This document shows positions 21,962-42,874 of a DNA stretch of 64,000 nucleotides, one piece after another. Numbering within the stretch: position 1 is the first letter of the stretch; each line of letters begins with the position of its first letter. Origin of the DNA: Lawsonibacter sp. GTDB lineage: Bacteria; Bacillota; Clostridia; Oscillospirales; Oscillospiraceae. Location of the stretch: positions 1,723-65,722 of the forward strand of contig JAZSAP010000092.1 of NCBI GenBank assembly GCA_045601925.1. The letters run 5' to 3'. The translations under genes were made by a program, and so were the position numbers. Under the pieces are notes generated by a model, which saw nothing but the letters and a program-made list of their open reading frames with translations, had not been told where the DNA came from and ran no database searches.

Positions 21962-22064
21962 AAATTTGACCTCCTGTGGGATTTCTCCCATCCCGCCGAA
22001 ACGGGAAAATAATTAAAATATATTATACCAACTTTTGTATTCTGCGTCAATAAAAGGCTTTTAT

Positions 22065-23083: not shown

Positions 23084-24286
23084 ATGGCCGACCAACTCGG
23101 TATCTATATTCATATCCCCTTCTGCCGTAGCAAATGCGACTACTGTGACTTCTACTCCCTGTCCGGCCGCGAAGCGGACATGGACCGCTATCAAAAGGCC
23201 CTGCTGGCCCACATCAAGGAGTCCGCCCCCCACGCAAAAGGTACGGAGGTGGACACCATCTACTTCGGCGGCGGCACCCCCAGCTATTACGGCGCCCCCC
23301 GGCTCAAAACTCTGCTGACCGCCCTGCGCAAGCAGTTTCGCGTGTGTAAGGATGCCGAGATCACGCTGGAAGCCAACCCCGACAGCGTAGACCTGCGTTC
23401 CCTGAAACAGCTGCGCCGGGCAGGTTTCAACCGCCTGTCCCTCGGCGTCCAGTCCACCTGCGACGCCCATTTGCAGGCCCTGCACCGCCCTCATAATTTT
23501 CAACAGACCCGGAATGCGGTCGAAGCCGCCCGCGAAGCAGGCTTCGACAATTTGAGCCTGGACCTCATCTACGGTCTGCCCGGACAGGACATGGCCGCCT
23601 GGCAGGACACGCTGGAGCAGACTCTGGCCCTGGAACCCAACCACCTGTCCTGCTACGGCCTGAAGGTAGAGGACGGCACCCCCCTCTCCCTCCGGGTGGC
23701 CCAGGGTTTGGTCCTCCCCGACGACGACCTGCAGGCCGATATGTACCTGCACACCGTAGAGCGGCTGGCCCAGGCCGGCTATCAGCAATATGAGATCTCC
23801 AACTTCGCCCAGCCGGGCAGAGAGTCCTGCCACAACCTGCGCTACTGGCTCACCCGCCCCTACATCGGCTTCGGTCCCGGTGCCCACTCCGACTTCGGCG
23901 GTCGGCGGTACAGCTTCGTCCGGGATCTGGACGGCTATATCCACGGCGTGTTGAACGGCTCCAATATCATCGACTCCTCCGACCTCGTCCCCGACCGTGA
24001 TCGGGGCGGCGAATACCTGATGCTCCGCTTGCGTACCACCCTCGGCATTGAGGAATGGGAATACCGCCGCACCTACTTCATGAACTTCGCGCCCTTGGAG
24101 GAATTGCTTCTGTCTTATGAGCGTCTCGGTTTCGCCACCCGGATAGAAGGCCGCTGGCGCCTGACCCCAAAGGGCTTCCTTCTGTCCAACCAGCTCATCG
24201 GCCTGCTCATGGAGCGTCAGGAGCGATCCAGTCTGGAAACCCTCCTGCCCCGTCTGCAGCGCGAACCACTCTCCAACAAAGAATAA
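23084..24286 (+). CDS. hemW: Radical SAM heme chaperone HemW
   Basis: YIHIPFCRSKCDYCDF, YFGGGTPS, YEISNF and the HNxxYW motif. Confidence 0.93.
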   Translation: MADQLGIYIHIPFCRSKCDYCDFYSLSGREADMDRYQKALLAHIKESAPHAKGTEVDTIYFGGGTPSYYGAPRLKTLLTALRKQFRVCKDAEITLEANPDSVDLRSLKQLRRAGFNRLSLGVQSTCDAHLQALHRPHNFQQTRNAVEAAREAGFDNLSLDLIYGLPGQDMAAWQDTLEQTLALEPNHLSCYGLKVEDGTPLSLRVAQGLVLPDDDLQADMYLHTVERLAQAGYQQYEISNFAQPGRESCHNLRYWLTRPYIGFGPGAHSDFGGRRYSFVRDLDGYIHGVLNGSNIIDSSDLVPDRDRGGEYLMLRLRTTLGIEEWEYRRTYFMNFAPLEELLLSYERLGFATRIEGRWRLTPKGFLLSNQLIGLLMERQERSSLETLLPRLQREPLSNKE

Positions 24287-24326
24287 ACAGAACCCCGGGC
24301 CCCTCGGCCCGGGGTTCTGTTTATTC
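24281..24326. terminator. Bidirectional terminator whose arms contain both convergent stop codons
   Basis: Perfect 20 bp inverted repeat gaataaacagaaccccgggc / gcccggggttctgtttattc. Confidence 0.85.
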
Positions 24327-24881
24327 CACCATTTTTTCAAGGTCGTCCCAGTTCAGCGCCTGCAGCTCGCGCCAGGTCATCTGCCGCTCCTCCATCTGCC
24401 GCCATGTCTGATACCAGAACAAATACCGCACCAGCAGGTGGGCCGGCAGAATGTCCTCCACCAGCATCCGGATGCGCTCAAACTCCTCTGGAATACCCGG
24501 CACATCAGGAAAGTGTACCTCTACCGTGTTGATCTGTCCCGTTTCCTGTACCACAGCATTCAGGCCGCAGCCCGCCAGCGTGCTGTTCAGCGCTTGACAG
24601 GTAAAACTACCCTCTCCGATGCGGTTCAGCGCCGTCAGCGCCTGTGCCAGCTGCTCGGGCTGCCGAGTGGCCGGCCTGCGGGCAAACAGCTTTGCCGCCT
24701 GCTCCAAACCTTCCTCCCGCGCCGTGATCAGGCACATCTCCCGCTGGATCCGTTCCAATTCCGCCTCCAAACGGTCCATGGCCGCACCCACGCACTCCAG
24801 TTCTGCCCCCAGGTAAGAGTCCTCCAACCGGTATACCCCAAGCGGCTGCAGCAGTGCCTTCATATTCGCCGCGTAGCTCAC
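24321..24881 (-). CDS. Baseplate protein, YmfQ/XkdU (DUF2313)-like
   Basis: Follows baseplate J with a GTGA overlap. EDILPAHL motif and a C-terminal TW repeat. Confidence 0.7.
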   Translation of the reverse strand: MSYAANMKALLQPLGVYRLEDSYLGAELECVGAAMDRLEAELERIQREMCLITAREEGLEQAAKLFARRPATRQPEQLAQALTALNRIGEGSFTCQALNSTLAGCGLNAVVQETGQINTVEVHFPDVPGIPEEFERIRMLVEDILPAHLLVRYLFWYQTWRQMEERQMTWRELQALNWDDLEKMVE

Positions 24882-25924
24882 ACCATCGCCTCCACCGTCA
24901 GCCGACCCAGAACAGGCAGCTGTCCGCACTCTATGACCACATCCTGTTCCGGCAGCACCAATTCATAATTTTCAACCCCATCGACCCCGTAAGTCAGGCT
25001 GCCCAGCTTGGCGCGCAGCACGTTTTTACCCAGTAGTTCACCTGAAAACCAGTTGTTTACCTCCTGCTTCACCTGCTGGGAAACCGTCTGAACGTCCTGC
25101 GCCGCAATGCGGATCGTCACATCCACCGGCACCGTTTTCGGCCCACTCACTGCCACGTCCACCGCAATCTCTCGGTTTTGCTCCATCTGTCGGCTAATGG
25201 CATCCAAAAGTGCCTGCTCCGGGATACCCTCCCGGGTGGCAACCACCACGTCCACCGTACCAACGCCACGTCTTTTGGGAATAGCCACCGCCGCCGCCAC
25301 CTGGTCAAAGGACATGGCCACCTGCTCATAATAGGCGCAGTTTGCCCCGTTTGGCAGCCGCGCAAAGCTATCCAAAATCCTCCGGCGCAGCTGCTCGTCA
25401 CTCTCCTGATCCGCGCCCAGACTCATGGCCACGGGGTTGCTGCAGCCTGTGATCCCCACCGGAGCCGTCGCCAGCACGTTCACACTGCCCGCACTCACGT
25501 TGCCTGCCGCTCCCGCCTGCACCGCCTGCACGGGAACGTCCACATATTTCTCCCCCGCAGCCAGCACGCCGTCCTGCAATGTCGCAAACCGCACGTAACC
25601 CTGTGTCATGCACACCGTCCCGGCGGGAACGACCCTGTCGCTCTCCCCGGCGCCGTCCGCGTAAAAGCGCACCACACCCCGGGCGTATTCCGCACCCTTG
25701 CGTTCCAGCGCCCGTAGCTGAGCGTGGCGATCCAAATATTCCCCTGCAGCGGTCTGGGGAAAACACTGTCTGTTCACCCAGTCCGCCTGTGCGTACAGCG
25801 CATAAACCTGTGCTGCTGCCGCGTACAGGCGGGCCGCAAGGTCTGCCCCTTCCGCGATCTCCATTCCGGTCCGGGCCGAGAAGTCCGCCCGCATTTCACC
25901 GTAAAGTTCCTCAATCGTCTTCAT
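24878..25924 (-). CDS. Baseplate J/gp47 (XkdT-like) protein
   Basis: QTAAGEYLDRHA, GAAGNV, GADQESDEQLRRRI and RGVGTVDV. Confidence 0.9.
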   Translation of the reverse strand: MKTIEELYGEMRADFSARTGMEIAEGADLAARLYAAAAQVYALYAQADWVNRQCFPQTAAGEYLDRHAQLRALERKGAEYARGVVRFYADGAGESDRVVPAGTVCMTQGYVRFATLQDGVLAAGEKYVDVPVQAVQAGAAGNVSAGSVNVLATAPVGITGCSNPVAMSLGADQESDEQLRRRILDSFARLPNGANCAYYEQVAMSFDQVAAAVAIPKRRGVGTVDVVVATREGIPEQALLDAISRQMEQNREIAVDVAVSGPKTVPVDVTIRIAAQDVQTVSQQVKQEVNNWFSGELLGKNVLRAKLGSLTYGVDGVENYELVLPEQDVVIECGQLPVLGRLTVEAMV

Positions 25925-26279
25925 CTGTCACCCCTCCAAGCTGCGCCGTGACCGCCGCACTCCCGTTCTCCCACTTGAGATGCACCGTCACCTGCGCTCG
26001 GCCCGCCTTCTCTGCGTATGCAACCTCCGTCACCGTAACGTCCTCACCTTCCAGTGCCTGGGCCACGTACTGCGCACACAAACCCTGCCGCGCGCTGGCT
26101 TTCTCCCGACACAGCGTATGCAGCTTGCTGCCCAGCTCCGGCAGAAAGGGAAACGCTCCCCGCCGCGCCTGCAGCTTAAACAGCACCCGCTGCAGCATCG
26201 CCTGCTCCCCCTGCACTGTCGCAAAGCCACCCGCACCATTGGGGATCAGGTCACCGTCTTTCATCTTCCATTCTGTCAT
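25911..26279 (-). CDS. Baseplate wedge/sheath initiator (gp25/XkdS-like)
   Basis: Position before baseplate J. RGAFPFLPELGS motif typical of gp25/gp46-like proteins. Confidence 0.7.
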   Translation of the reverse strand: MTEWKMKDGDLIPNGAGGFATVQGEQAMLQRVLFKLQARRGAFPFLPELGSKLHTLCREKASARQGLCAQYVAQALEGEDVTVTEVAYAEKAGRAQVTVHLKWENGSAAVTAQLGGVTDEDD

Positions 26280-26690
26280 TTAGGTTCCCTCCTGCCGGGC
26301 CAGCGCCCGTTCCACTGCCAACTCGACCAGCGCTTCCAGCTCCACGCCGTTGACCAGCACCGCCCCCTGCAGCCGCACTCGCCCCTCTGCATCCAGCCTG
26401 ACAGAACACCCCCGGCCATACAGTTCCACCTCACCGGGATTCAAGTCGTTTGGCCCCGTATCCATTCCGGCCATAATGCAGGCCGCCTCCGCATCCGCAC
26501 CGGTCTTGATGACCAGCACCTGCTGTCCGTTTTCAGGCTTCCATCGATACCCGCCCGGGGCCGCCACCGGCAGCAGCCGCTGATGTCCGTCCGCATACAC
26601 TCCGGTCTGTTCTCCCTGGGCCGTCACCACCCCCATGCGCGCATCGTGTTCCTGCCTTCCCATGCACCTGCTCTGTTGTGAAATCCACAT
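26280..26690 (-). CDS. Putative baseplate spike (Mu gp45/gpV-like), short
   Basis: Synteny between hub and wedge genes. APGGYRWKP and LNPGEVELY followed by short beta strands. Confidence 0.6.
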   Translation of the reverse strand: MWISQQSRCMGRQEHDARMGVVTAQGEQTGVYADGHQRLLPVAAPGGYRWKPENGQQVLVIKTGADAEAACIMAGMDTGPNDLNPGEVELYGRGCSVRLDAEGRVRLQGAVLVNGVELEALVELAVERALARQEGT

Positions 26691-26700
26691 TCCGCTCACC

Positions 26701-27654
26701 TCACAGCATAACGTCCGGAGGCAGCAGTTCCAGTCTGGTCCTGTACCCGCCGCCGTCCATACGCACCACGGCTCGGGCCACCCGCCATCGCCCGTCAAAA
26801 GTTGGGTTCCACCCCTCCACCTGTACCAGCTCTCCGGGCCAGGCGGCAAAGGCGACCGACAGTTCCATCTCCAGTTCCAACTGCCGCTGCCGGGACTTCT
26901 CCAGCTGATACTGTCCCTGATACCGCATGGCCTGGTAGTTGCTCTTCTCCGGCATGGTAAACATTCTTCGGCTCTGTCCGCCACCATCCTTAAAGCTTTG
27001 GTTGACCACTTTTTCCACCTTTGCCGACGTGCCGCGGTCCCGTACCCATACCTCGCTGAGCACGCCGTATCTGCGGTATCTGCCCGTAAGCGCCGTCACC
27101 GCGCTCCTGCGGTCGATCCTGCGCACCGTGCTGTCATCCCAGCCGGCCAGTATCAGCTTCCCCTCCCGGTCAAACCGCGGTGTGACCCCGCCGTAAAACC
27201 GCGCAAACTGATACAGCACCGACCACTCGCTGCTCCCCGCCGAAACCGAAAGCCCTCGCACCGCCGGCAGCGATTCCCGCCTCACCACCTCAATGCCATA
27301 GGGCAGCACGTGGTTGCACAGAATATCCTCCGCTGTCGCCAGCGTATACTCCGCGCTCTGTGCCTCGTTATCCAGCAGCAGGGCCGCAAGACCCCGCCCG
27401 CTGACTTCCAGCCTGCTGCCTGCCCCGGACCGGGTGACCACGCACTCGTCCACCACACCCGCGAACACAGTCTGTTCCCCTTCCCGGGCCTCAAAGCGAA
27501 CCGCCTCGGCCAGCACCTGCTCCTGCCCCGCATCCCACATGCATACCACCCGAAAGCTGTCGCAGGGCGTGGCGCAGCCGTAATCCAGTTCCCATTCCAG
27601 CATGGCGGGCAGCGCCCAGCGTCGCCCATCTGCTGTCAGCAGCCAGCCTTTCAT
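26701..27654 (-). CDS. Baseplate hub/late control protein (XkdQ/Mu gp44-like)
   Basis: VFAGVVDE, VSGRG..LLD and GSSEW motifs, size and position. Confidence 0.7.
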   Translation of the reverse strand: MKGWLLTADGRRWALPAMLEWELDYGCATPCDSFRVVCMWDAGQEQVLAEAVRFEAREGEQTVFAGVVDECVVTRSGAGSRLEVSGRGLAALLLDNEAQSAEYTLATAEDILCNHVLPYGIEVVRRESLPAVRGLSVSAGSSEWSVLYQFARFYGGVTPRFDREGKLILAGWDDSTVRRIDRRSAVTALTGRYRRYGVLSEVWVRDRGTSAKVEKVVNQSFKDGGGQSRRMFTMPEKSNYQAMRYQGQYQLEKSRQRQLELEMELSVAFAAWPGELVQVEGWNPTFDGRWRVARAVVRMDGGGYRTRLELLPPDVML

Positions 27655-28220
27655 TTGACCACCACTTCCTGCCCCACCCGGATAAGGTTGGGGTTTTTAA
27701 TGTTGGGATTTCGCTCAAGGAGCTGTTCCAGCGTCACCCCATAGCGGCGGGCAATGGCCCACAGGGTGTCCCCTTTCACCACCGTGTGAACCGTCCCGCC
27801 GACCTGTACCGGCCGCCCACTCTGCTCCACCGTTTCCTGCTTCAGCTTGCCGTCATAGCAGTCCAGCTCCTCCCAAAATGTAAAGCTGTAACTGACGTAA
27901 TCCGGTCTTGGCTCCTGCTTCAGCGTCAATTCCACAAAATAGGCGTTGGCCGCCTGCCACAGAGGGTGGATCAGCGGACCCGCCCCCTCCTTGTAAAACA
28001 CGTTTGCCAACGCGCCAAACTGTGCGTAAGCATCCTGCCCCACAAATTCGCCTTCCCCGCGCATCACCCGCCGGGTCCGGCCCAGATCCTGCAGCCGGTA
28101 CTGCCCAAAAGGCACCTTGTCCACCGCGACCTGCCGCTCGTAGTCAATGGTGTATACCTTGGGGTTGTGCGGCCAAACGTAATCCTTATATCTCATCGGG
28201 TTCAATTTCATGTCTGTCAC
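27651..28220 (-). CDS. LysM-domain tail tube initiator (XkdP-like)
   Basis: C-terminal LysM HTVVKGDTLWAIARRYG...NPNIKNPNLIRVGQ and a tube-like N-terminus (WPHNP). Confidence 0.85.
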   Translation of the reverse strand: MTDMKLNPMRYKDYVWPHNPKVYTIDYERQVAVDKVPFGQYRLQDLGRTRRVMRGEGEFVGQDAYAQFGALANVFYKEGAGPLIHPLWQAANAYFVELTLKQEPRPDYVSYSFTFWEELDCYDGKLKQETVEQSGRPVQVGGTVHTVVKGDTLWAIARRYGVTLEQLLERNPNIKNPNLIRVGQEVVVK

Positions 28221-28238
28221 CTCTGCCCCGTCAACTCA

Positions 28239-28691
28239 TCAAAACAGCCCCAGGGGGCCATCATACCGCCGGGCATCACGCTGGAATTCCGCGTCCAGCA
28301 AACCGGCCAGTCCGCGCTGCACCCCCGGCGCGGCAGCGTTCAGTCTTCGCGCATCCTGTCCATAGACCGTCCCCGCCTGCTCTGCCGCCTGCCGTTTCCA
28401 CACCTGCGCCGCCTGCTGTACTTTCCCTCGGGCCACCGCCCGTTCCAACATCAGCAGCTGCTCCTGCAATCCCGCTCTCCCGGCTGCTTCAGCCTGCACT
28501 TGCACCCGTCGGCCCTGTCCGCCTTCCTGTGGGCCGGGCCGCTGCCCTGCGGCCTGCGGACCATCGACAGTCCCGTGCATACCGGTCGCACCTTCCGGCC
28601 CGCGATAGCCCGCCGTCCGCCTCCACGTGAACGCTTCGCGTTCTTCCTCATCCTGCTGTTCATCCAGCAGCAGCTCCAAATAGTCGGTCAT
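28239..28691 (-). CDS. Hypothetical Ala/Gln-rich protein in the tape-measure position (putative mini tape measure)
   Basis: 150 aa ORF between the chaperone pair and the LysM gene, with an ATGA overlap. Function inferred from synteny only. Confidence 0.5.
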   Translation of the reverse strand: MTDYLELLLDEQQDEEEREAFTWRRTAGYRGPEGATGMHGTVDGPQAAGQRPGPQEGGQGRRVQVQAEAAGRAGLQEQLLMLERAVARGKVQQAAQVWKRQAAEQAGTVYGQDARRLNAAAPGVQRGLAGLLDAEFQRDARRYDGPLGLF

Positions 28692-28990
28692 TCCTGCAGC
28701 CCCCGTTTCATCCGTTCAAATCGTGCCATGTCAAAGCCTTGGTTGACCGACCCCTCACACAGCGCCAGCGGCGCACCGCAGCTGATGCACCGTTCCTCCA
28801 TGGCCCTGTCCCGGCAAGCGGGGCATAACCCCGCCAGTTCCTCTTCTTCATCCAGCATCAAATTCAATGCGCACCACAGAAAATCCCGGTCCTTCATCCT
28901 GTGGACCCGTTCCTCCGTGGGCAGGGCTGAAAATGCTCGCAGCACGCGCCAGTACAGCCGCTCCTCCCGGGCGTGCTCCAGACTTTTTTT
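28688..28990 (-). CDS. Tail assembly chaperone -1 frameshift extension (gpT-like) with two CxxC motifs
   Basis: The -1 frame is open from the A7 slippery run at 28984-28990 to the stop at 28688. Confidence 0.65.
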   Translation of the reverse strand, partial: KKSLEHAREERLYWRVLRAFSALPTEERVHRMKDRDFLWCALNLMLDEEEELAGLCPACRDRAMEERCISCGAPLALCEGSVNQGFDMARFERMKRGLQE

Positions 28991-29322
28991 AGCTTGTCCG
29001 CCCCCGCGTCATCCACATTCGGTCCGGGGTTGGCCTGGCGGTTGAATTCGGCCCACCGTCCGGCCAGCTGCCCGATTTCCTCCACCGTCAGCTCCGCCAG
29101 CACCTGCGCCCCATCCTGAAACTGTGGCTCATCGCCCCGCATCACCACCTTGGCCAGCAGACAGGCATTGGCGCACAGCGCCATCTCCCGTTCCTCACCG
29201 GCCAGTTGGCGGGCCTGCGCCCTGGCCTGCAGCACCTCAAAGGCACTCAGCAGCCGCAGCTGCCGGCCATCCTCCAGTTCCAACCATTCCGGGCCACTCA
29301 AAAGTCCCCACTTCATGCTCAC
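28894..29322 (-). CDS. Tail assembly chaperone (gpG/XkdN-like)
   Basis: Directly follows the tail tube gene and carries an LKK slippery site near its end. Confidence 0.7.
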   Translation of the reverse strand: MSMKWGLLSGPEWLELEDGRQLRLLSAFEVLQARAQARQLAGEEREMALCANACLLAKVVMRGDEPQFQDGAQVLAELTVEEIGQLAGRWAEFNRQANPGPNVDDAGADKLKKVWSTPGRSGCTGACCEHFQPCPRRNGSTG

Positions 29323-29708
29323 AGTTCCATCTCAATGCGCTTGGATGCCACCACTTTTACCTTTTCCAGCACCATATCGCCCAAGCCCGCCTCTTCGCTG
29401 ATGCTGCTCCACTGACAATCGGAGTAAATGATCCGTCTGTCCGGCTTGGAGATGACCAGCGAAAATCCCTCCAGCCTGTAAAAATCAATGCCGTCCCGAA
29501 TGGCTTCGTCGGTGGCATACAGCCGGGTCAGCTCCAGCTCATGCTTCACCGGACCTGCCACCGTAGCCACAGGCTGTTTCTCGCCGAAGGCCTCCACCGT
29601 ACTGCTGGTCTTGGTGGCCTTGGCGCTGTAGCTCTGCACCACAGCCACCTTGGTGCCGTCCACCTCCAAATAGATGTCGCTGCTGGTAGGAAAACCAGTT
29701 ACCGTCAT
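29319..29708 (-). CDS. Tail tube protein
   Basis: 129 aa beta-rich ORF directly after the sheath, with a strong GGAGG RBS. Confidence 0.7.
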   Translation of the reverse strand: MTVTGFPTSSDIYLEVDGTKVAVVQSYSAKATKTSSTVEAFGEKQPVATVAGPVKHELELTRLYATDEAIRDGIDFYRLEGFSLVISKPDRRIIYSDCQWSSISEEAGLGDMVLEKVKVVASKRIEMEL

Positions 29709-29719
29709 GTTCTCCCTCC

Positions 29720-30772
29720 TTAAACCGTAATGTGAGCGCTGAGCCAGATCTGGTTAATGCCGTGGGTCACCGTAAAGGCAAAGTCCACCAGACACCGGGT
29801 GGGCTCCTCACTGTCCTGAACCACGCGCACCCCGTCGTAAGCCGTGATGATCTCCCGATCCAACTTGTTCTCCAGCTCCAGCACCACCTGGGAGCGGATC
29901 GCCCCACGGCTCTGGGCCGTGTTCTTCGCTCTGCGGAATCGACTCTTGAGCGCATTGCGAATGGCGGGGATCACGTCATCCACCACCAGAATGGCCGACA
30001 GATCTCTCCACGTGCTGTCTGCCGCACCTGCCGTGGTGGTGCGGGTGGTCACACCGCGCACCACGCTGACCGTGCCGGCCACGCTTTCCGCCGCCGTCAC
30101 ACCGCCGCGGATCAGCACATCCAGTTCGCTGTCATCGTAAGCCGCAGCCAGTCCGTGCAGACCCATCAGCTGCGCACCGCCAAGGGGGACCGCCGGATCT
30201 GCGAGGCCCGCCACCGCACCGGCCATGGCCGCCGCCAGTTCCACGCCGGACAGCGCCTTGCCCTCACCGTCCACACAGCCGGGAGCCGCCAGCACCACGC
30301 GCTCGCTGTTCAACGCCGCCGCCCGCTCCACCAGCGCATCCACGTCTTCGTCCGCACCGCCAGCCACCACGGCGATGCGTTCTCTCTGGGCGGCAGAAGC
30401 AGTGTTTACACTGTCCCGCAACGCCTGCTGCACCGACAGCTCCACACTGTCGCACACCACCACCGCCAAATTCTCCGCTGCCGCCATGGCGGCAAATGCC
30501 GCGGCGTAGTCCTCCCCCTTCACGGGGAACACGCTCACCTGGGCCGCGCCGTTCTGCAGCAGCAGACGCACCAGGGCGGTAACCCCCTCCGCCTGCTCCG
30601 GGCCAAAGGCCTCCACCGCCTGCTCATAGCGGGTAATGTTCCACATCGTCTTGGCCGGCTCGGTCATCTTCGCCGCCAGACCTGCGTTCTTTCGCCCCGC
30701 AGATGCACTCACCGCCGCAGACGCCTCGTAACCGGTATATACGCCCGGTCTTTCATGGGCTGTAATGCTCAT
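29720..30772 (-). CDS. Contractile tail sheath protein (minimal, 350 aa)
   Basis: N-terminal RPGVY and a sheath C-terminal domain (LIRGGVT, VVRGVTT, ILVVDDV, KNT). Confidence 0.85.
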   Translation of the reverse strand: MSITAHERPGVYTGYEASAAVSASAGRKNAGLAAKMTEPAKTMWNITRYEQAVEAFGPEQAEGVTALVRLLLQNGAAQVSVFPVKGEDYAAAFAAMAAAENLAVVVCDSVELSVQQALRDSVNTASAAQRERIAVVAGGADEDVDALVERAAALNSERVVLAAPGCVDGEGKALSGVELAAAMAGAVAGLADPAVPLGGAQLMGLHGLAAAYDDSELDVLIRGGVTAAESVAGTVSVVRGVTTRTTTAGAADSTWRDLSAILVVDDVIPAIRNALKSRFRRAKNTAQSRGAIRSQVVLELENKLDREIITAYDGVRVVQDSEEPTRCLVDFAFTVTHGINQIWLSAHITV

Positions 30773-31269
30773 ACCTTCCTATCCCCTCTCAAGGTAAAAT
30801 CAAGGATGTCCGCCGCCTCTTCGCCGGTTGCCCACAGCCAGCCGTCGCAGCTGACCGTGCAGCCCAGCCGCAGCAGACCTTCCTTCTGGTCAAATTTGAT
30901 TTCCTCACCGGTCAGCTTCCGCACCGTCAACCCACAGGGGCGCTTTCCCTGAAGCACCTCCACAAGCTTTTGAAACAGCCGCCTGCACGCCCCGGCCCCC
31001 ATCTCCGCGGATGCCAGTATATCCAGGGAAAACTCCAGTTTAGCCTTCCTTCCGTACCATTCCACGACCTGACCGCTGGCCTCATCCAACCGCTGCCCCA
31101 GATAATTCTGCAGCCCCACCGGCTCGCAATTCATCTTGGCCAAAGCCACCAGTACCAGCGCCTGCTGCAGCCGCTCCCTGCGCCCCTCGGGCCAGCAGGC
31201 CGCCGCCGGAATTTCATTCTCCCGCAGGAACTGTGCCATCTCCTCCTGCAGCTTCTCCAGTTCCATCAC
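30769..31269 (-). CDS. Putative tail terminator/completion protein
   Basis: Synteny immediately before the sheath, with an overlapping start/stop. Confidence 0.5.
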   Translation of the reverse strand: MMELEKLQEEMAQFLRENEIPAAACWPEGRRERLQQALVLVALAKMNCEPVGLQNYLGQRLDEASGQVVEWYGRKAKLEFSLDILASAEMGAGACRRLFQKLVEVLQGKRPCGLTVRKLTGEEIKFDQKEGLLRLGCTVSCDGWLWATGEEAADILDFTLRGDRKV

Positions 31270-31601
31270 GGCACCTCCCGCTCTCTGCGATCAAACACCG
31301 CCCACCAGTGGGTCAACTGACCGCCGGCATACACCGGCTGCGCCGTGCGCATGCGATAGCAAATGCCGTCGGCCTCCAACCGGCAGTTGCCGCCTTCCAG
31401 GCTCACCTGCGCCGGTCCAATGTAAGTAAATTTATCCTGTATGGCCCAACCCAGCGGGGTGGGGACGGCCTTGGCCGTCCCCCTGTCCCGCACAGGCTGA
31501 AAACATGCTTTCACCGTCACGCCCTCCGGGTGCTGCCCGGTGTAAAGGGTCACCGTGCGGCCAAACCGCTCCAGTTCCCTTCCGATTTTCTCCTGCATCA
31601 T
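31266..31601 (-). CDS. Putative head-closure/stopper protein
   Basis: 111 aa beta-rich ORF (FGRTVTL) after the adaptor. Confidence 0.5.
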   Translation of the reverse strand: MMQEKIGRELERFGRTVTLYTGQHPEGVTVKACFQPVRDRGTAKAVPTPLGWAIQDKFTYIGPAQVSLEGGNCRLEADGICYRMRTAQPVYAGGQLTHWWAVFDRREREVP

Positions 31602-31957
31602 CAGCCATCCACTCCACAGAACATAAAGCTAGTGTCCCGCAGCCAGCCTGCCATCAGCTCTCCGGCCTGTCTGCGCAGCAACTTCGCCCGCTGCCCGGCA
31701 TCGCCGCTTTGCACGCTCACGTCGCCGGCCGTAAACCGTTCAGCCTGCCCCACCGCCCGGCTCACTTCCAGTCCGGCCAGGGCCATCCACGCCCCGGCCA
31801 GCACAAAGCACTGCCCACAGTCCTCCGGCTTCACCCCGTCCCGCAGCCGCTCCTGCAGCTGTCGGAACGCCGCCTCGCACAGACCGTCCAGCGCACCGTA
31901 CTCCTGCTCTTCCACCCGGCCCAAAGACCGGGCCAGCTCCGCCATCTGCCGGACCAT
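31601..31957 (-). CDS. Putative head-tail adaptor protein
   Basis: 118 aa helical ORF after the capsid gene with an FTAGDVSV beta hairpin, as in gp6/gp15-type adaptors. Confidence 0.55.
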   Translation of the reverse strand: MVRQMAELARSLGRVEEQEYGALDGLCEAAFRQLQERLRDGVKPEDCGQCFVLAGAWMALAGLEVSRAVGQAERFTAGDVSVQSGDAGQRAKLLRRQAGELMAGWLRDTSFMFCGVDG

Positions 31958-32970
31958 TACACGCTCAGCACCTTGGCCGCGTCACCAAACAACTTGGCAA
32001 AACCGCTGATGCTGGTAATGGCGGCACGCTCCAGCTGACGGTCGATGAGCTTGTCGTACTCGATCATCACGTCACTGCCCTGCACCATCTCCAGCGCATA
32101 GTTGCGGTCCAAACCAATGATGGTGTTGGCGGGCAGGGCGCTGGTGCGCAGTAGGGTGGCACCCAGAGGGGTGGTCAGCTTGCCGGTGCCCTGGAAATTC
32201 AGGCCGGTGGCAGGATTCTGGAATTCAGGCAGCTTGAGCATCTTGACCATCATGTCGTTGCTCACCAGCAGGGTGTTCATCTCATAGGGATCAAACTTGG
32301 CCCAAAAATCCACCAGATCCTCGTAAGTCAGCACGCCCTCACCGGCAGCCTGATACACCTGGGCGGGATTGTTGTTGCCGTCGCCGTTCATCAGCACGTC
32401 AATGGCATCCTCCATGTGCATGCGGTTGATGTGTGCGCCGATCTGACGCAGGGTAACGGAAAACAGATCCAGCTTCTGGTGACGAATGGCCTCGTAGGAA
32501 GCCACCAGCATGCGGCCGCGCTTGTGCAGCTGCACCAGATTGTCCTGCACCTTCACCGTGGTGCTGGGAATGGCCGCACCCTCCTCCACACGGCGCAGCT
32601 TCTTGGCATCATCGCCAGTCTGGGTGGTGATGGAGCGGTAATCCATGCCGTCAAAACGGGTCACCGCGGCAGTAATGGCGGGCAGCATGTTCTGCTCCTC
32701 CATGCCCTGTCGCACCGCACGGGCAATGTACTCGGGGAACAGCACGGCAGAGTCGGCGCTGCGGAAAAACTTCTCCACCACGTCGCTACCCGCGCCCTTC
32801 ACCTTAATGTCAAAACGCTTGAGCTGGCGCTGGAAGGCGTCCATACCCTCCATGGCCGTGCCCTTGTACTGCTGGTCGGGGTCCATGCTCTCCAGCACCT
32901 GGGTAAAACTCTTGCCCGCCTCATGATACATGCCCTTGTCCAGCTTCAGATTGTCAAACTGATAAGCCAT
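31957..32970 (-). CDS. Major capsid protein (HK97-like)
   Basis: About 337 aa, VLFPEYI, VEEGAAIP, LHKRGRML.ASYEAIR and LMNGDG. Alternative start at 32979. Confidence 0.85.
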   Translation of the reverse strand: MAYQFDNLKLDKGMYHEAGKSFTQVLESMDPDQQYKGTAMEGMDAFQRQLKRFDIKVKGAGSDVVEKFFRSADSAVLFPEYIARAVRQGMEEQNMLPAITAAVTRFDGMDYRSITTQTGDDAKKLRRVEEGAAIPSTTVKVQDNLVQLHKRGRMLVASYEAIRHQKLDLFSVTLRQIGAHINRMHMEDAIDVLMNGDGNNNPAQVYQAAGEGVLTYEDLVDFWAKFDPYEMNTLLVSNDMMVKMLKLPEFQNPATGLNFQGTGKLTTPLGATLLRTSALPANTIIGLDRNYALEMVQGSDVMIEYDKLIDRQLERAAITSISGFAKLFGDAAKVLSV

Positions 32971-32990
32971 CTTTACCATTCCTTCCTTTC

Positions 32991-33329
32991 TTACAGGCAG
33001 ATAACGGCCTTGCCGTCCTGCTCCACCTGAACCACCAGTGCCTGCACGCCGTCCTCGGCAGCCTGTACGCCGCCCTTGCCGTCGGCAGCCAGCTTCACAT
33101 GGCCCAGACCCACCTGACCGGTGATATTCACCTGCATAAAGCCGCCCACCTGCACCGCCACGGCGCCCTTTCGTACCTGACCGGCCACACCGCAGAAGGC
33201 GTCACCCTGCTCGCAGGGGCCCACCGTGCCGTTGGCGGTCATCTTGACCACCTGACCATCCTCCACGCCCTGGTCGGCGTAAAAGGTGGCCATCACATTG
33301 CCAATGTCGTCAAACGAGATTTTGTTCAT
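32991..33329 (-). CDS. Putative capsid decoration/cement protein
   Basis: 112 aa Gly/Val-rich beta protein between the protease and the capsid gene. Confidence 0.55.
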   Translation of the reverse strand: MNKISFDDIGNVMATFYADQGVEDGQVVKMTANGTVGPCEQGDAFCGVAGQVRKGAVAVQVGGFMQVNITGQVGLGHVKLAADGKGGVQAAEDGVQALVVQVEQDGKAVICL

Positions 33330-33385
33330 CCTTGCTCCTCCTGAATGTTATTTATCCAAAAGCGGTCGTCCCGCCGGGATACGAA

Positions 33386-34306
33386 TCAAATCAGAAACGC
33401 CCCGTCACCTTCAGGCTGTTCCTGTCCCTTTACGCTGTGGTCCAGCTGTGTCATCAGCGGGAAGCGCTTTGCCGCCTTGTCCGCATAAACGCGCCGCAGT
33501 TCCAGCAGTTCCGCCTCACCCAGCTTCTCGGCAATGCGCTCCATCGTCCCATGGTCCACACCCTCGCCGGTCAAACCGTTCAAGCGAACGACCTCATTGC
33601 GCAGTGCCGACAGATACCGTCTGCCCAGCTCCGCCTGCTTTTCCAGCAGTTCCACCTCATGACCCCAGCCTTCCTGCCCGGCCAGTTCCTTCATGGCGTG
33701 GTAACCCTTGTGCTTCAATACTCCCGCCTTGGGCTGGGCCGGCACCGCCACAAAGGACCACTCAAAGGCATCCGCCGCCCCCTGCAGGCTGGTGTAACAC
33801 AGCTTGCCATCGTAAACCTCGCCCTTTCGGTGGGCGCAGCTGCTCGCCTGCTTTCCGCACACGGAGCATACCGCCTTCTTGACCGCGCAGCCAACGCTGA
33901 CTTCCCGCAGAATGCCGCCCTCCAGCTGGGCGATCAATTCCTCGTTGCCCGATGTGCGCAGTATATAGGCATACCCCTTCACAAAGCAGCCCGCATCCCC
34001 CGCCGCTGTCACCACACCGGGTTCCTCCACCACCTCGGTGCGGTACAGCCGGGCCGTCTGACCTGCCGCCGTCCACTGGTGGTCAAAAATGCCCGTCTTG
34101 CCCACAAACAGCTGGGCCAGTTCCTCCAGCGTGCCTCGTTCAAACCGCTCGCCATCCCGGTCGATCTCGTTGTCACACAGCCGCACCGCAAAGGTATACA
34201 CCTCCTGGGCCGTCAGCTGTTTTCTGCTGAACCGGTTGATCAGTTCCAGCTCCCCGCTGTCCGGCTCAACCTGCGCCGTACAGCCAACCTGCTTTTTGAC
34301 GTTCAT
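33386..34306 (-). CDS. Prohead protease/scaffold protein
   Basis: DNEIDRDGERF, IFDH, EVSVG, EWSFVAVPAQP, and a helical C-terminal scaffold region. Confidence 0.75.
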   Translation of the reverse strand: MNVKKQVGCTAQVEPDSGELELINRFSRKQLTAQEVYTFAVRLCDNEIDRDGERFERGTLEELAQLFVGKTGIFDHQWTAAGQTARLYRTEVVEEPGVVTAAGDAGCFVKGYAYILRTSGNEELIAQLEGGILREVSVGCAVKKAVCSVCGKQASSCAHRKGEVYDGKLCYTSLQGAADAFEWSFVAVPAQPKAGVLKHKGYHAMKELAGQEGWGHEVELLEKQAELGRRYLSALRNEVVRLNGLTGEGVDHGTMERIAEKLGEAELLELRRVYADKAAKRFPLMTQLDHSVKGQEQPEGDGAFLI

Positions 34307-35448
34307 ACTTCCTCCACGTCCCCTTTCAGATTTTCAGCCTGCCGGCGGTACAGCTCCGCCCTGGCCTGCTCTACCTCATCCTGCAGCTTGATCTGGCTCC
34401 AGTTGACCTTCACACTGCCGCCAAAGCCGTTCAGCCGCAGCCAAATCTCGCAAATGCGCTCCACCACCGGTTCCAGACTTCTTCGAATGGCCCCGATCTC
34501 GCTGGTCATCAGATCCGCCTGCTGGCTGCTCATGCGCTCGGTGCTGGACCAGGAAAGGCCCAGCATAAAGGGCGGAATACCGGTCCGCGCGATCAGCTGC
34601 TCCAAAATCTGCCGCACTGGCACCTCACTGTCCAGCACCTGATTGTCCGCACCGATCACCCGGATGTCCACATCGCCCATAGCCACAAAATCCCGCACAC
34701 TGCCCTGGCTGGTGGCCTGCATGGCCCGGCTCCACTCCTGGGCCACCTGCTGGCACCGCTCCCGGGCGTACAGCTCGTCCCCCTCACCGTTTTTGCACAC
34801 CACGGCAAAGCGCACGTTGCCCACCCGCTCCCAGTTCAACCCAATGGCCTGATAAATTTTCATCAAAATCTCGGTCATAAAGGGCATAGACCGCAGCAGT
34901 GACACGCCATAGGGGTTGCCCACCTCAGGCTGGAACGGGGTAAACAGCAGCAGGTCCTGACAGGGGAACGGCTCCGGCTTCCCCGTACCCGAAGCGCACA
35001 GTTCAAAGTCCAACGGCGACTGCCCCTGACGAATGACCACCGCCGCCGGGTCGCACCATAAAAGGGCGGCCACATCCCGTCCCTGCCGGTCGGGCACGAT
35101 CTCGCCCACCGCTCTGCCGCAAGTGAGCATGCTGTCTAAATACCCGTCCAGGAACGCCTGCAGGCCGCGCTGTCCCCGCCCTGCGGGCACCGTCTTCAAG
35201 AACTGTTCCAGCCCCTCTTGGGCCCGGGCATCCTCGGTCTCCACCTCCACGCCGCCGCACAGGCGGATCAGCTTCAGGATGGCCGCATCCACAATGGGCA
35301 CCGCCTCCCGGATGGCTCGATACAGTCTGCTGTCCGCCTCCTGCAGGGGCACATAACGTTCCAACGCACCAAATGGATGATGCGGGTTGCTCCGAACCTG
35401 CACCGCCGTCCCCTGCACCTGAGGCTGTTTCTTCTGAAATAATTTCAT
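34303..35448 (-). CDS. Phage portal protein
   Basis: Follows the terminase. LYRAIREAVPIVDAAI, PYGVSLL and TGIPPFMLG. Confidence 0.85.
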   Translation of the reverse strand: MKLFQKKQPQVQGTAVQVRSNPHHPFGALERYVPLQEADSRLYRAIREAVPIVDAAILKLIRLCGGVEVETEDARAQEGLEQFLKTVPAGRGQRGLQAFLDGYLDSMLTCGRAVGEIVPDRQGRDVAALLWCDPAAVVIRQGQSPLDFELCASGTGKPEPFPCQDLLLFTPFQPEVGNPYGVSLLRSMPFMTEILMKIYQAIGLNWERVGNVRFAVVCKNGEGDELYARERCQQVAQEWSRAMQATSQGSVRDFVAMGDVDIRVIGADNQVLDSEVPVRQILEQLIARTGIPPFMLGLSWSSTERMSSQQADLMTSEIGAIRRSLEPVVERICEIWLRLNGFGGSVKVNWSQIKLQDEVEQARAELYRRQAENLKGDVEEV

Positions 35449-35462
35449 CCGCTCGCTCCTTT

Positions 35463-36761
35463 TCACATTCTGCTTCGCCGGCTCACACTTCCGGCAAATA
35501 CAGGCGGCTGCGCCCCCTGTCCCTCAACGATCGTGGCTGCAAAATACCGGATGTCGTCCATGGCGTGGTCGTCCTGCTTGCGCACCCGGTCCCCCGTCCC
35601 ATCCTCTTCCCAGCGGTAAAGTCCAAACTCCCGTATGGCATCATCACACCCCCGGCAGATGACCAGTTTTCCGCACCGAAGCAGCTCCGCCGTGATCCGC
35701 ACGCCGCTGAGCACATCATTTTTTGCTTTCATTACCCGCCATCCGGCCCGGCGCAGCACTTCAATAAAGCTGGCCGCCGACGGATCCACAACCACCCGCC
35801 AGATAGCCCGGCCTGCTGCCAACGCCGCCAGCTTTTGGGCATACTCCCCGTCGGTCATCTGCCGCCCGACCAGCTTGGAGTCGTAGTAATATTCCTTCAC
35901 CCGATACCACACCCCATCCCGCAGGCCCCACAGCCCGAAAGACGCCGGATTCACCGTGCCGTAGTCGCAGGAGATACACCATCGCTCCATCTCCCCCTCC
36001 GGCGGTTCAGGGCAGCTCTCTTCTCGGAAAAAGTCGTAGACCAGCCCCTCCGCCGCAACCCATTCGCCCAGCACGAACCTGCGGTAAAAGGTTCCTTTGA
36101 ACATCTGCTCATACCGCTTGCGCACCTTGTCGGACAGGGATGGATTGTCCTTCATCGTAAAATGCAGATACAGGGCATTTCGCTCCTGCGCCCTGCAGAT
36201 CCACTCCTTGTAAAACCAGTGCTGGGGACCCTCCGGATTGCAGGAAAACCACACCTTCGCCCCCTCTACCGAGCAACGGGCGCAGGCCTGCTCCACGAAG
36301 GAGCGCGGCATCAGCACCACCTCGTCCAGCAGCACCCCCGCCAGGGTCAAACCCTGTATCAGGTCGGCGCTGCTCTCGTCCTTGCCGCCAAACAGATAAA
36401 AGATGTTCTGTCTCTCCCCAAGCGACACGTTCAGCTGATTTCGGCTGAGCAGCTGTTCGCACTCAAATCCCCTCTGCCGCAGGACCGGCAGCAGCTCCCG
36501 CAGCAGATTGCGCCGCACCGACTCAATGGTCTTGCCGCACAGGGCAAATGCCTGCCCGTCAAACCGCGCCATGGCCCAGTCAAAAAAGGACAACCCCATA
36601 CAAATGGTCTTTCCGCTTCGCACCGCACCGTCACAGATCAGCGCGTCCCAACCCCGCCGGCTTCTCCACCAGCTCATCACCCGCTTCTGCTTTGGGGAAA
36701 GCTCGCTGAATTTCCCGCCCTGGGTCTGTTCGCGATTTAAGCCCTTCGCGCCCTTTCCCAT
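35463..36761 (-). CDS. Terminase large subunit (PBSX XtmB family)
   Basis: Walker A DGAVRSGKT, Walker B VLLDE, CNPEGPQHW, and nuclease motifs SCDYG and DDHAMDDIRY. Confidence 0.93.
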   Translation of the reverse strand: MGKGAKGLNREQTQGGKFSELSPKQKRVMSWWRSRRGWDALICDGAVRSGKTICMGLSFFDWAMARFDGQAFALCGKTIESVRRNLLRELLPVLRQRGFECEQLLSRNQLNVSLGERQNIFYLFGGKDESSADLIQGLTLAGVLLDEVVLMPRSFVEQACARCSVEGAKVWFSCNPEGPQHWFYKEWICRAQERNALYLHFTMKDNPSLSDKVRKRYEQMFKGTFYRRFVLGEWVAAEGLVYDFFREESCPEPPEGEMERWCISCDYGTVNPASFGLWGLRDGVWYRVKEYYYDSKLVGRQMTDGEYAQKLAALAAGRAIWRVVVDPSAASFIEVLRRAGWRVMKAKNDVLSGVRITAELLRCGKLVICRGCDDAIREFGLYRWEEDGTGDRVRKQDDHAMDDIRYFAATIVEGQGAQPPVFAGSVSRRSRM

Positions 36762-36860
36762 AAATTCACCTCACACAAGTGGTAAAATCTCGGCAAAAGT
36801 TGTACGTTCGCGTCCCCATAAGCAAAAAGTTTTTCAAAAAATTTTTCCTCCGCCCTCTGC

Positions 36861-36890
36861 GTATAGTCCGTCTGCACCATTCACATCCTT
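36861..36890 (+). promoter_or_regulatory. Possible forespore sigma-G/F type promoter of dacF
   Basis: GTATA-18 nt-CATCCTT resembles the sigma-G consensus GHATA-N18-CATAHTA. Confidence 0.4.
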
Positions 36891-36922
36891 TCAGCAGAAT
36901 AAAATCGTTTGGAGGAACACCC

Positions 36923-38047
36923 ATGAAACGCATCCTGTCCGCCCTTTTGCTTCTTGCCCTGCTCATCTCCCCGGCCTCTGCCGCCCCAAAGATCGACGCC
37001 CCCGCCGCTCTGCTCATGGAAAAGCAGACCGGCACCGTGCTGCACGAAACCAACTCCCACGACCGCCGCTCCCCGGCCAGCGTCACCAAAGTCATGACCC
37101 TCCTGCTCATCATGGAGGCGCTGGAGCAGGGCCGCATCGCCCCGGAAACCCTGGTGTCCGTCTCCGCCACCGCCGCCAGTATGGGCGGCTCACAGGTCTA
37201 CCTTGCCGAGGGGGAGCAACTGTCCGTCCACGAAATGCTCAAATCCATCGCCGTTTCCTCTGCCAATGACGCCTGCGTCGCCATGGCCGAGCATCTCTGC
37301 GGCAGCGAGGAAAGCTTCGTAGAACAAATGAACACCCGGGCGTCCCAGCTCGGCATGACAGATACCCACTTTTCAAACTGCACCGGTCTGCCCGCAGACG
37401 ACCACTACTCCAGCGCCCACGACATCGCCCTCATGTCCCGTCAGCTCATCCTGAACCACCCGGACATCCGCACCTATACCACCATCTGGATGGACTCCAT
37501 CCGTGACGGCGCCTTCGGCCTTTCCAACACCAACCGCCTCATCCGCTTTTACCCCGGCGCCACCGGTCTGAAAACCGGCTTCACCGACACCGCCCTGTAC
37601 TGCCTGTCCGCCACCGCCGAGCGGGATGGCATGGAGCTCATCGCCGTGGTGCTGGGCGCCGCCACTTCCGAGGCCCGCTTCGAAACCGCCAAATCCCTGC
37701 TGGATCACGGGTTTTCCAACTACGCCCTCACCGACGTCTATCCGGACTCCCCTCTGTCTCCCATCCCCGTCCTGCTGGGTCAAAGCGACCACGTCCAGCC
37801 CCAGCTGGCGCGGGACTGCCGCCTGCTCCTGCCCCGAAGCAGCACCGGAACCGTCACCACCGAACTGACTCTAGCGCAGGACGTTCAGGCCCCTGTGGAG
37901 GCCGGCCAGCAACTTGGCTCCATGCGCGTGCTGGTGGACGGCCAGCTCCTGGACACCGTCCCCATCGTGGCCTCCGCCGCCGTGGACCGTCTCACCTTTT
38001 CCTCCATCCTCTCACAACTACTCCACCGTCTTTTCATGGCCGGTTAA
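36923..38047 (+). CDS. dacF: D-alanyl-D-alanine carboxypeptidase (DacF-like)
   Basis: Signal peptide, PASVTK (SxxK), SAN, LKTGFT, NCTGL, and a PBP5 C-terminal domain. Confidence 0.8.
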   Translation: MKRILSALLLLALLISPASAAPKIDAPAALLMEKQTGTVLHETNSHDRRSPASVTKVMTLLLIMEALEQGRIAPETLVSVSATAASMGGSQVYLAEGEQLSVHEMLKSIAVSSANDACVAMAEHLCGSEESFVEQMNTRASQLGMTDTHFSNCTGLPADDHYSSAHDIALMSRQLILNHPDIRTYTTIWMDSIRDGAFGLSNTNRLIRFYPGATGLKTGFTDTALYCLSATAERDGMELIAVVLGAATSEARFETAKSLLDHGFSNYALTDVYPDSPLSPIPVLLGQSDHVQPQLARDCRLLLPRSSTGTVTTELTLAQDVQAPVEAGQQLGSMRVLVDGQLLDTVPIVASAAVDRLTFSSILSQLLHRLFMAG

Positions 38048-38382: not shown

Positions 38383-38411
38383 TTGACGGCGCTCCACCGC
38401 GGTTGTATAAT
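38383..38411 (+). promoter_or_regulatory. Sigma-A promoter of glgBCDA
   Basis: TTGACG-17 nt-TATAAT. Confidence 0.75.
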
Positions 38412-38502
38412 TTATATAAATTGGAGTCGTATTTTTCGACACAATATTGTAATTTCTAACAGTACCATTTTCAAACACTTTTCCCGTCTTTTAGGAGTAT
38501 TT

Positions 38503-40431: not shown

Positions 40432-40441
40432 GGTGACCGAA

Positions 40442-41650
40442 ATGAAAAAAGAATGTGTCGCTATGCTGTTGGCCGGCGGTCAGGGCAGCCGTCTGTACGC
40501 CCTGACCAGCCACGTGGCCAAACCCGCCGTCCCCTTCGGCGGTAAGTACCGCATCATCGACTTCCCCCTGTCCAACTGCATCAACTCGGGCATTGATACC
40601 GTGGGTGTCCTCACCCAGTACCGCCCCCTGGAGCTCAACAGCTACATCGGCTCCGGTCAGCCCTGGGACCTTGACCGGTCCGACGGCGGCGTACATATCC
40701 TGCCCCCTTATATGCGTGAGGGGGACCAGGGCACCTGGTACAAGGGCACCGCCAACGCCATCTACCAAAACAACGGTTTCCTCGATATGTACGACCCGGA
40801 GTACGTGGTCATCCTCTCCGGCGACCACATCTATAAGATGGACTACTCCAAAATGGTGGACCACCACAAAAAAGTCGGCGCCGCCTGTACCATCTCCGTG
40901 CTGGAAGTCACCATGGAAGAGGCCACCCGCTTCGGCATCATGAACGTGGACGCCGAGGACCGCATCTTCGAGTTCGAGGAAAAACCCGCCCACCCCCAGG
41001 GCAACCTGGCCTCCATGGGCATCTATGTCTTCACCTGGTCCAAGCTGCGCCAGTACCTCATCGCGGACGAGGCGGACCCCGCCTCCGCCAACGACTTCGG
41101 CAAAAACATCATCCCCAATATGCTTGCCGCCGGCGAAATTATGTCCGCCTATCGCTTCCGCGGCTACTGGAAGGACGTGGGCACCATCGACTCCCTGTGG
41201 GATGCCAACATGGATATGCTGGCCCCCCGCACCAGTATCGACCTGAAGGACCCCACCTTCCCCATCTACGCCCGCACCCCCATCCGCCCCCCTCACTTCA
41301 CCGGTCCCAACGCCGTCATCTCCCACAGTCTGGTCACCGAGGGGTCGGAGGTTTACGGTACCGTTGAAAACTCCGTCCTGTTCCACTCCGTCACCGTGGA
41401 GGAGGGAGCCTGCATCCGCTATTCCATCCTCATGCCCGGCGCCACCGTCAAGGCAGGGGCAACGGTTGAATACGCCATCATCGCGGAAAACGCCGTCATC
41501 GAACCCGGCGCCACCGTGGGAACTCCCCCGGATGCCAGCCCCGATTGGGGCGTGGCCGTGGTGGCCTCCGGTATCACCATCGGGGAAAACGCCACCGTTT
41601 CTGCCAATGCCATGATTCGTGAAGACGTGAAAGGAGGCGAGCACGCATGA
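40442..41650 (+). CDS. glgC: Glucose-1-phosphate adenylyltransferase
   Basis: [38 protein letters not shown] and FEEKP. Confidence 0.97.
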
Positions 41651-42762: not shown

Positions 42763-42763
42763 A

Positions 42764-42812
42764 GCCTTCCCCTGGGGGAAGGTGACCGAGCGCAGCGAGG
42801 TCGGATGAGGGG
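42764..42812. repeat. Short intergenic palindromic repeat (CIR/RIME-like)
   Basis: gccttcccctgggggaaggtgaccgagcgcagcgaggtcggatgagggg, a double-hairpin motif. Confidence 0.55.
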
Positions 42813-42874
42813 AACACCATCACCACTCAACCACCTCCCGCGCTCCCCCAATCCCACAAAAGCGAGGTAACTCT

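Follow-up and report, generated by a model that had tools for sequence, protein, structure and literature searches.

The 64,000-nucleotide stretch of Lawsonibacter sp. DNA considered here (contig JAZSAP010000092.1, positions 1,723 to 65,722; hereafter the window) carries a block of 12.4 kb at 24321 to 36761 on its minus strand, made up of genes for a phage head and a contractile tail, and this raises the question of whether such a block is the remnant of a prophage or a particle that the host has kept, perhaps as a gene transfer agent (GTA). The block comprises 19 open, co-oriented, and largely coupled open reading frames (ORFs), running from the terminase to a YmfQ-like gene, between hemW (23084 to 24286, plus strand) and dacF (36923 to 38047, plus strand). 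A preliminary description of the window had called the operon intact, counting about 18 ORFs, and had found it to abut these two genes without an integrase, replication genes, or att-like direct repeats. Both statements hold: the block contains neither an integrase nor a replication gene, no tRNA was found at it, no attachment-site (att)-like repeat was found at its ends among the 20 largest repeat families, and its GC content equals that of the host. Small terminase, fiber, and lysis genes are likewise absent from within it. From its spread, its inheritance, and the selection acting on it, we conclude that the block forms the structural core of a phage-derived system that is ancient, is passed on vertically, and has been maintained by selection in the Oscillospiraceae.

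The capsid gene was found in 22 of 24 congeners and, in a survey of 350 Oscillospiraceae genomes that are each at least 90% complete, in 156 genomes from 59 of the 101 genera (153 genomes once three weak matches are dropped). It is nearly always single copy, and genomes with two matches mostly hold split genes. Across the order, 35 of 250 genomes carry it (5 matches are weak), mostly in three families, and a class survey of 300 genomes, one of them unscored, gave two matches outside the order. Among congeners, gene order is constant and dacF-glgB adjoins the operon wherever the contig extends far enough; in other genera the flanks are other host genes, and the dacF neighbor is genus specific. 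Among 40 loci of other genera, 3 lie at a contig edge, 3 are without sheath and baseplate genes, 3 appear damaged, and 1 has its genes in another order; no integrase was found among 107 scanned proteins of the other-genera loci. Locus L060 (genome G221) has the decoration and capsid genes ahead of the portal and protease genes, a rearranged operon that is apparently intact.

Inheritance of the element follows that of its hosts. In 41 genomes, the head tree and the tree of the unlinked SecA had 22 of 38 splits in common, where random relabeling gave at most 3; Mantel rho was 0.86, and 3 conflicts between the trees had support. The tail tree had 18 of 34 splits in common with the SecA tree (rho, 0.89). 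Pairwise ratios of nonsynonymous to synonymous substitution (dN/dS) in the window's clade were 0.05 to 0.23, and 0.53 for an ORF of 150 amino acids (aa), next to 0.10 to 0.17 for the flanking host genes; values in other clades reached 0.44, and neither the pairs nor the related genomes are independent of one another. Since the trees agree with that of the host, dN/dS is low, and the gene is nearly always single copy, we regard the block as domesticated rather than as a prophage in decay. The proposal of the preliminary description, a head and contractile tail that the host maintains and inherits vertically, is thus borne out by capsid spread, SecA congruence, and low dN/dS. Its main alternative, a cleanly trimmed cryptic prophage in neutral decay, could draw on a related complete prophage outside the order (genome G641, with an integrase, a 791-aa tape measure, and the same gene order), on the 197 of 350 family genomes without a strong capsid match, and on a few broken-looking copies (G254, L050, L055, and L075). 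Presence among relatives and host-tree congruence speak against that alternative, as do a dN/dS far below 1, the single copy in each genome, the conservation of a signal for frameshifting, and that of a regulon of unlinked genes; it is largely refuted, with next to no probability. One broken copy (L257, G254:C4) retains the activator described below and consists of a small terminase gene, a truncated large terminase gene, and then YmfQ, the middle of the operon being deleted.

Sheath, tube, or whole tail has been lost in several lineages that keep head and terminase, some with head and baseplate and some with head alone; because the head is kept while tail parts are lost, we take the head to be the conserved core. 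That the head is the most conserved part would also fit antiphage or satellite-like interference, in which head proteins made from host genes would redirect the assembly or the DNA of related incoming phages, and a preprint likens similar integrase-free gut Clostridia clusters to capsid-forming satellites (10.64898/2026.07.08.737213). We consider interference very improbable, as the element is without integrase or primase and has its own tail, fibers, lysis-like gene, and phage-type switch.

The genes of the block, all on the minus strand, read in the order of a contractile-tailed phage. The large terminase (TerL; 35463 to 36761) belongs to TIGR01547 (175 bits against a cutoff of 105) and aligns with PDB 5OE8 (E, 4e-130) through Walker A (GAVRSGKT), Walker B (VLLDE), SCNPEG, and the nuclease motifs SCDYG/DPSA/DDHAMDD, so the ATPase and nuclease motifs are intact, as had been stated. 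It is followed by the portal (34303 to 35448), a prohead protease/scaffold gene (33386 to 34306) named from a weak XkdF match of one homologue, a decoration-like virion protein (32991 to 33329; phrog_4588), the major capsid protein (31957 to 32970; PF25209 and phrog_3922), and three neck genes, namely, the head-tail adaptor (31601 to 31957), the stopper (31266 to 31601), and the tail terminator (30769 to 31266; phrog_25177, of unknown function). The 350-aa contractile sheath (29720 to 30772), the tube (29319 to 29708; phrog_27038), the tail-assembly chaperone pair G/GT (28688 to 29316), and the 150-aa ORF (28239 to 28691) come next, and the series closes with a tube initiator carrying a LysM domain (27651 to 28211), a gp44-like baseplate hub (26701 to 27654), a short spike (26280 to 26690; phrog_25991), a gp25-like sheath initiator or wedge (25911 to 26279), baseplate J (24878 to 25924), and a YmfQ/Mu gp48-like wedge protein (24321 to 24881). 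Family matches support portal, capsid, sheath, LysM/DNA_circ_N, hub, sheath initiator, Baseplate_J, and Mu gp48-like genes; adaptor, stopper, terminator, tube, spike, and chaperones are named by position (adaptor and stopper with synteny), without a named family. A bidirectional intrinsic terminator (24281 to 24326) is common to the operon and hemW. The gene series listed in the preliminary description stands, except that its "short ORF" occupies the tape-measure slot and that the spike starts near 26690, not 26987.

The tail is predicted to be very short. The chaperone ORFs overlap at a conserved −1 slippery A7 run (28984 to 28990) and are fused in some relatives, and the ORF behind them, with conserved ends and a variable middle, sits where a tape measure belongs. 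It ends in RD[AS]RRY, resembling ESRRYG, with which the tape measure of G641 ends (a weak match; E, 0.12), and in loci without a sheath the ORF in this slot has about 50 to 60 aa. The 150-aa ORF is likely a miniature tape measure. Tail length amounts to 0.15 nm per tape-measure residue, which would give a tail of about 20 nm. G641 itself is a complete temperate myophage whose capsid is 48% identical and whose order from portal to YmfQ is the same; it differs in having an integrase, replication genes, the 791-aa tape measure, a portal-MuF fusion, a 641-aa ORF at the fiber position, and an amidase. It is likely of the ancestral type. Defense-like genes (HicAB, Abi_alpha, and TIR/SLATT) lie within the structural region of this prophage (L250 to L252).

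What such a particle would package depends on the small terminase (TerS). In relatives, TerS (PF03592) lies before TerL. Its N-terminal helix-turn-helix (HTH) is full in most order-level relatives, degenerate in about 8 Oscillospiraceae loci, and absent in the rest, and the HTH-less TerS of most Oscillospiraceae has about 100 aa. In the window and four close relatives, the TerS gene is deleted in frame, and its ribosome-binding site and ATG start are reused by TerL. A TerS without its DNA-binding domain has been proposed as a hallmark of GTAs (PMC6854486); this form is seen in most Oscillospiraceae relatives, and the window's clade has no TerS at all. Other features by which a GTA may be recognized are virion genes that the host encodes with no genes for integration or replication beside them, vertical descent with purifying selection, and a core cluster with accessory genes elsewhere; the first two were found as described above, and the third is indicated by a motif, by position in relatives, and by co-occurrence. 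A GTA would further be expected to package random host DNA in pieces that cannot encode the agent itself and to deliver DNA that recombines in the recipient. The series of full, eroded, HTH-less, and deleted TerS forms a natural test of the idea that a GTA arises when TerS loses its DNA-binding domain.

The motif is a quasi-palindrome, TTGYAC-N6-GTRCAA (36799 to 36818, minus strand), conserved 37 nucleotides (nt) upstream of the first gene and likely a binding site of the activator; in most operon loci it lies 35 to 40 nt before the first gene. With a position weight matrix trained solely on operon-upstream sites, the top three sites in the source genome precede the operon (22.3), a 156-aa gene on contig C75 (17.5), and a 96-aa gene on contig C76 (16.9) that we take to be XhlA-like. 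The family of the C75 gene sits behind YmfQ inside 7 order-level operons, and phrog_1863, matched by the C76 gene, also matches the gene directly behind YmfQ in locus L053. The C76 query found the XhlA-like gene in 2 of 40 congeners. The C75 fiber-like gene is scattered across Lawsonibacter chromosomes (33 of 40 genomes, 1 to 14 divergent matches each; some copies may belong to prophages), and the motif lies within 250 nt upstream of 24 of 52 fiber starts, compared with 15 of 399 control genes. Its product is modeled as an anchor, a helix, and a beta-sandwich (predicted local distance difference test [pLDDT], 88). As a homotrimer, modeled in three copies from an alignment of our own, it scored 0.87 against 0.01 for the best control (20 of 30 solved pairs attained the mark, as did 1 of 23 single chains); the runs agree on at least 79% of contacts, with a pLDDT of 81 to 85.

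In genome G185, a longer fiber of phage type has the same domain at its tip, near rearranged alternative tips. In that genome, the phage-type fiber gene (L221:1081-3370) is followed by an assembly gap and then a resolvase-like gene, and two 1-kb contigs (L224 and L226) carry alternative fiber tips in differing orders, consistent with a shufflon. A resolvase-like gene on the minus strand of L288 (G916) has the motif upstream (score, 19.9), an ORF of at least 483 aa without a Pfam match also bears it (L285:1-1449, G913) and may encode a further cargo protein, and a weak palindrome lies near position 5060 of G000:C57, between divergent small XRE-like and ribbon-helix-helix-like ORFs. In some genera (loci L047, L051, L083, L057, and L082), holin (PF05105), CBM5/12, or M15 lysin genes stand directly behind YmfQ, which is likely the ancestral place of lysis genes.

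A candidate switch accompanies the element. Behind the operon of L059, L066, and L067 there is a module of three genes, the last of which encodes a sigma70-region-4 protein (a weak activator match was obtained in L113); in five complete genomes, the module adjoins tRNA-Thr/Tyr. The candidate activator is present in 147 of 153 capsid-positive genomes versus 42 of 197 capsid-negative ones, some of the 42 being broken copies or weak matches. In the four TerS-less relatives, the module stands opposite an XRE-type repressor, with two or three palindromic operators between them; no LexA box was found upstream of any activator module (10 searched) or operon start (70 searched).

Toxin genes join the putative regulon in some strains. 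Five near relatives have the motif ahead of the operon, the fiber gene, the XhlA-like gene, and MuF-ribonuclease genes with barstar behind them; two further congeners have the same motif-MuF-ribonuclease arrangement, and their paralogous lipoprotein RNases are without the site. Six of the 23 MuF matches in 50 capsid-positive genomes carry the motif (one with an uncertain start) and have variable C termini, including Ntox44, and the other 17, mostly of prophage type, lack it. Portal binding by MuF proteins is known from SPP1, and injection has been proposed for MuF toxins (PMC5576092). The published MuF polymorphic toxins, like those here, combine a MuF domain, a variable toxin C terminus, and a small downstream gene, barstar in two cases; in the available text they occur only in temperate phages (PMC5576092), whereas the present ones stand alone with the motif of a domesticated element.

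Taken together, these data lead us to favor, with somewhat better than even confidence, a GTA-like particle with a host-DNA-filled head on a very short contractile tail and accessory genes at several loci. Content, inheritance, selection, TerS erosion, motif, and co-occurrence are observed, and the functional steps of the scheme are inferred from them. An XRE repressor would hold off the three-gene operon ending in the sigma70-region-4 protein; upon release, that protein would bind the palindrome and turn on the head-tail operon and the scattered genes jointly. TerL without pac-site recognition, through loss of the TerS HTH or, as here, of TerS itself, would package nonspecific host DNA. Short trimeric fibers from one or more unlinked genes would choose neighbor cells, the XhlA-like protein would aid release of the particle, and the short tail would serve injection into the recipient. 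In strains that have them, MuF-domain toxins may ride in the head and harm recipients that lack the immunity gene. A broader proposal is tentative, and the chances lie against it: one machine could serve gene transfer and kin discrimination, as an order-wide contractile mini-tailed GTA with random host DNA, MuF toxins, a scattered fiber library, and one activator, packaging without TerS in the window's clade.

Several findings weigh against the favored scheme. The particle is a prediction from genes, and the packaging signal published for the Oscillospiraceae is without a link to the window's operon. An activator, a repressor and its operators, a MuF gene, a holin, an endolysin, an M15 lysin, and GH25 were not found in the source genome (G000, in which the window is contig C92), which is 81% complete. 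Only about half of the fiber copies pass the motif threshold, and a fold search with the fiber gave nothing at an E value of ≤0.001, its weak matches to phage fiber domains having a best Z of 5.3. The strict palindrome pattern gave no more matches than the control in five complete genomes and missed the operon sites, and a looser pattern gave 29 matches versus 31 control matches; pattern counts are not enriched, and only the identity of the downstream genes is informative. Moreover, TerS was not found elsewhere in the genomes of the window and its four sisters, with the sister clade, where TerS is present, as a positive control. In the GTA of Rhodobacter capsulatus (RcGTA), TerS is essential, and RcGTA without TerS gives no transfer (PMC6854486).

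These last two points could mean that the particle of the TerS-less clade has ceased to package DNA and serves, empty or with protein only, for delivery or as a decoy. All catalytic motifs of TerL are kept, TerL and portal remain under purifying selection in the window's clade (0.13 and 0.06), and the TerL of T4 packages linear DNA in vitro without TerS (PMC6854486), all of which makes an empty particle improbable. Because TerL and portal stay constrained, DNA packaging probably continues in this clade.

A further point against the GTA-like scheme is that toxin-immunity genes under the operon's motif fit killing as well as transfer. PBSX-like elements kill related strains and package about 13 kb of host DNA. 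In the main rival reading, the present particle would be a weapon of this type, killing or intoxicating related strains through sheath contraction and MuF injection, with DNA as filler and fibers that widen its range. In keeping with this, a contractile sheath and a full baseplate are under selection, fiber copies number 1 to 14 per genome and are divergent, motif-bearing MuF genes have RNase, Ntox44, or other C termini with barstar behind the RNase forms, and the XRE-activator switch resembles xre/xpf of PBSX. PBSX also packages host DNA without injecting it (PMC12946183). We nevertheless think such a weapon rather unlikely, given the repeated loss of sheath, tube, or tail with head and terminase kept, a tape measure of 150 aa here against about 790 aa in the related prophage, and motif-bearing MuF genes in only 6 of 50 capsid-positive genomes, with none found in the source genome. 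The toxin genes that carry the operon motif in some relatives keep a killer role open.

Like PBSX of Bacillus subtilis, a GTA-like defective phage or phage-like bacteriocin, the element has a host-fixed head and contractile tail, a PBSX-family TerL (TIGR01547), no integrase, the same order through baseplate J and a gp48/XkdU-like gene, and, in relatives, an XRE repressor, a sigma-like activator, and an XhlA-like gene, the likeness being drawn from TerL family and gene order. It differs in its 150-aa tape measure (that of PBSX is full length), in its eroded or deleted TerS, in its multiple fiber genes, and in having switch, fiber, lysis-like, and toxin genes scattered, whereas PBSX is a single contiguous locus. 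With RcGTA it shares vertical inheritance, a core head-tail cluster with unlinked accessory genes (PMC11841831), and, in relatives of the window, an HTH-less TerS (PMC6854486), a likeness drawn from organization and published descriptions. The two differ in phylum, in the absence of TerS from the window's clade, and in the MuF toxins of some strains. The tail is a further difference, contractile here and noncontractile in RcGTA.

The preliminary description had known of no characterized GTA in a Clostridia lineage. That is superseded by FpGTA of Faecalibacterium, which belongs to the same order and is likewise multilocus, with a TerS lacking an obvious DNA-binding domain and no replication genes; its cluster is a different one, with ten podovirus-like ORFs, compared with the 19-gene myovirus-type operon with sheath, tube, and baseplate found here (PMC12946183). 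R-type tailocins and extracellular contractile injection systems are defined by having no capsid, portal, or terminase, all of which are present here and under selection, and the integrase, att sites, and replication module of a prophage or capsid-forming satellite were not found. In its predicted working, the element resembles RcGTA or PBSX and is not an FpGTA, a tailocin, or a prophage; judged by its genes, it is GTA-like.

Members of the Oscillospiraceae abound in the gut and rank with the chief contributors of host DNA to fecal virus-like particles (PMC12946183; 10.64898/2026.07.08.737213). GTA-like packaging has been reported in the family, of 5.9 kb in Onthomonas, with no operon identified in the available text (PMC12946183), and the operon described here is a candidate for this fecal signal, to which those sources, as available, tie no operon. 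The accessible part of the preprint gives no strong cluster in Pelethomonas, and its 12.7-kb Butyricicoccaceae cluster might be a relative of the window's operon (10.64898/2026.07.08.737213). The cluster is not described in the available parts of PMC11841831, PMC10538166, and PMC13673991, and no description of it was found in the literature searched, which did not extend to subscription papers. Against that literature, what appears to be new is the apparent loss of the TerS HTH in most relatives with deletion in the window's clade; the palindrome apparently common to the operon and the unlinked fiber, XhlA-like, and some MuF genes; and the candidate activator that co-occurs with the capsid and lies opposite an XRE repressor. 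A cultured carrier exists in Lawsonibacter asaccharolyticus, whose capsid cluster is 80% identical, and the candidate one-gene switch could serve to induce the particle. The apparent shared control of fibers and toxins makes the question of transfer or killing directly testable for GTA-like particles of Gram-positive bacteria.

The 14 IMG/VR matches are each at most 14 kb long, and a 46.7-kb GenBank "phage" match is host chromosome with a ribosomal operon; because the locus is filed as phage in both databases, virome catalogues are inflated. A GenBank "Bacteriophage sp." scaffold (L098, MT835508.1) is host chromosome with a head-only version of the operon.

In the genus, the operon is divergent from dacF, and the capsid occurs in 149 of 322 spoIVA-positive and 4 of 28 spoIVA-negative genomes, as might be expected of a sporulation-linked structure or mother-cell lysis device. 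The dacF neighbor is confined to the genus, however, more than half of the spoIVA-positive genomes lack the capsid, the spoIVA-negative genomes are a few related or fragmented ones, the link is weak, and the motif fits no sporulation-sigma consensus; we regard this explanation as extremely improbable.

About 160 bp separate dacF from the operon, and 36820 to 36925 holds what, by eye, we take to be a possible sigma-G/F-type promoter. Glycogen genes flank the element and its neighbors on both sides, with glgP within 19544 to 21991 and glgB-glgC-glgD-glgA within 38383 to 44311.

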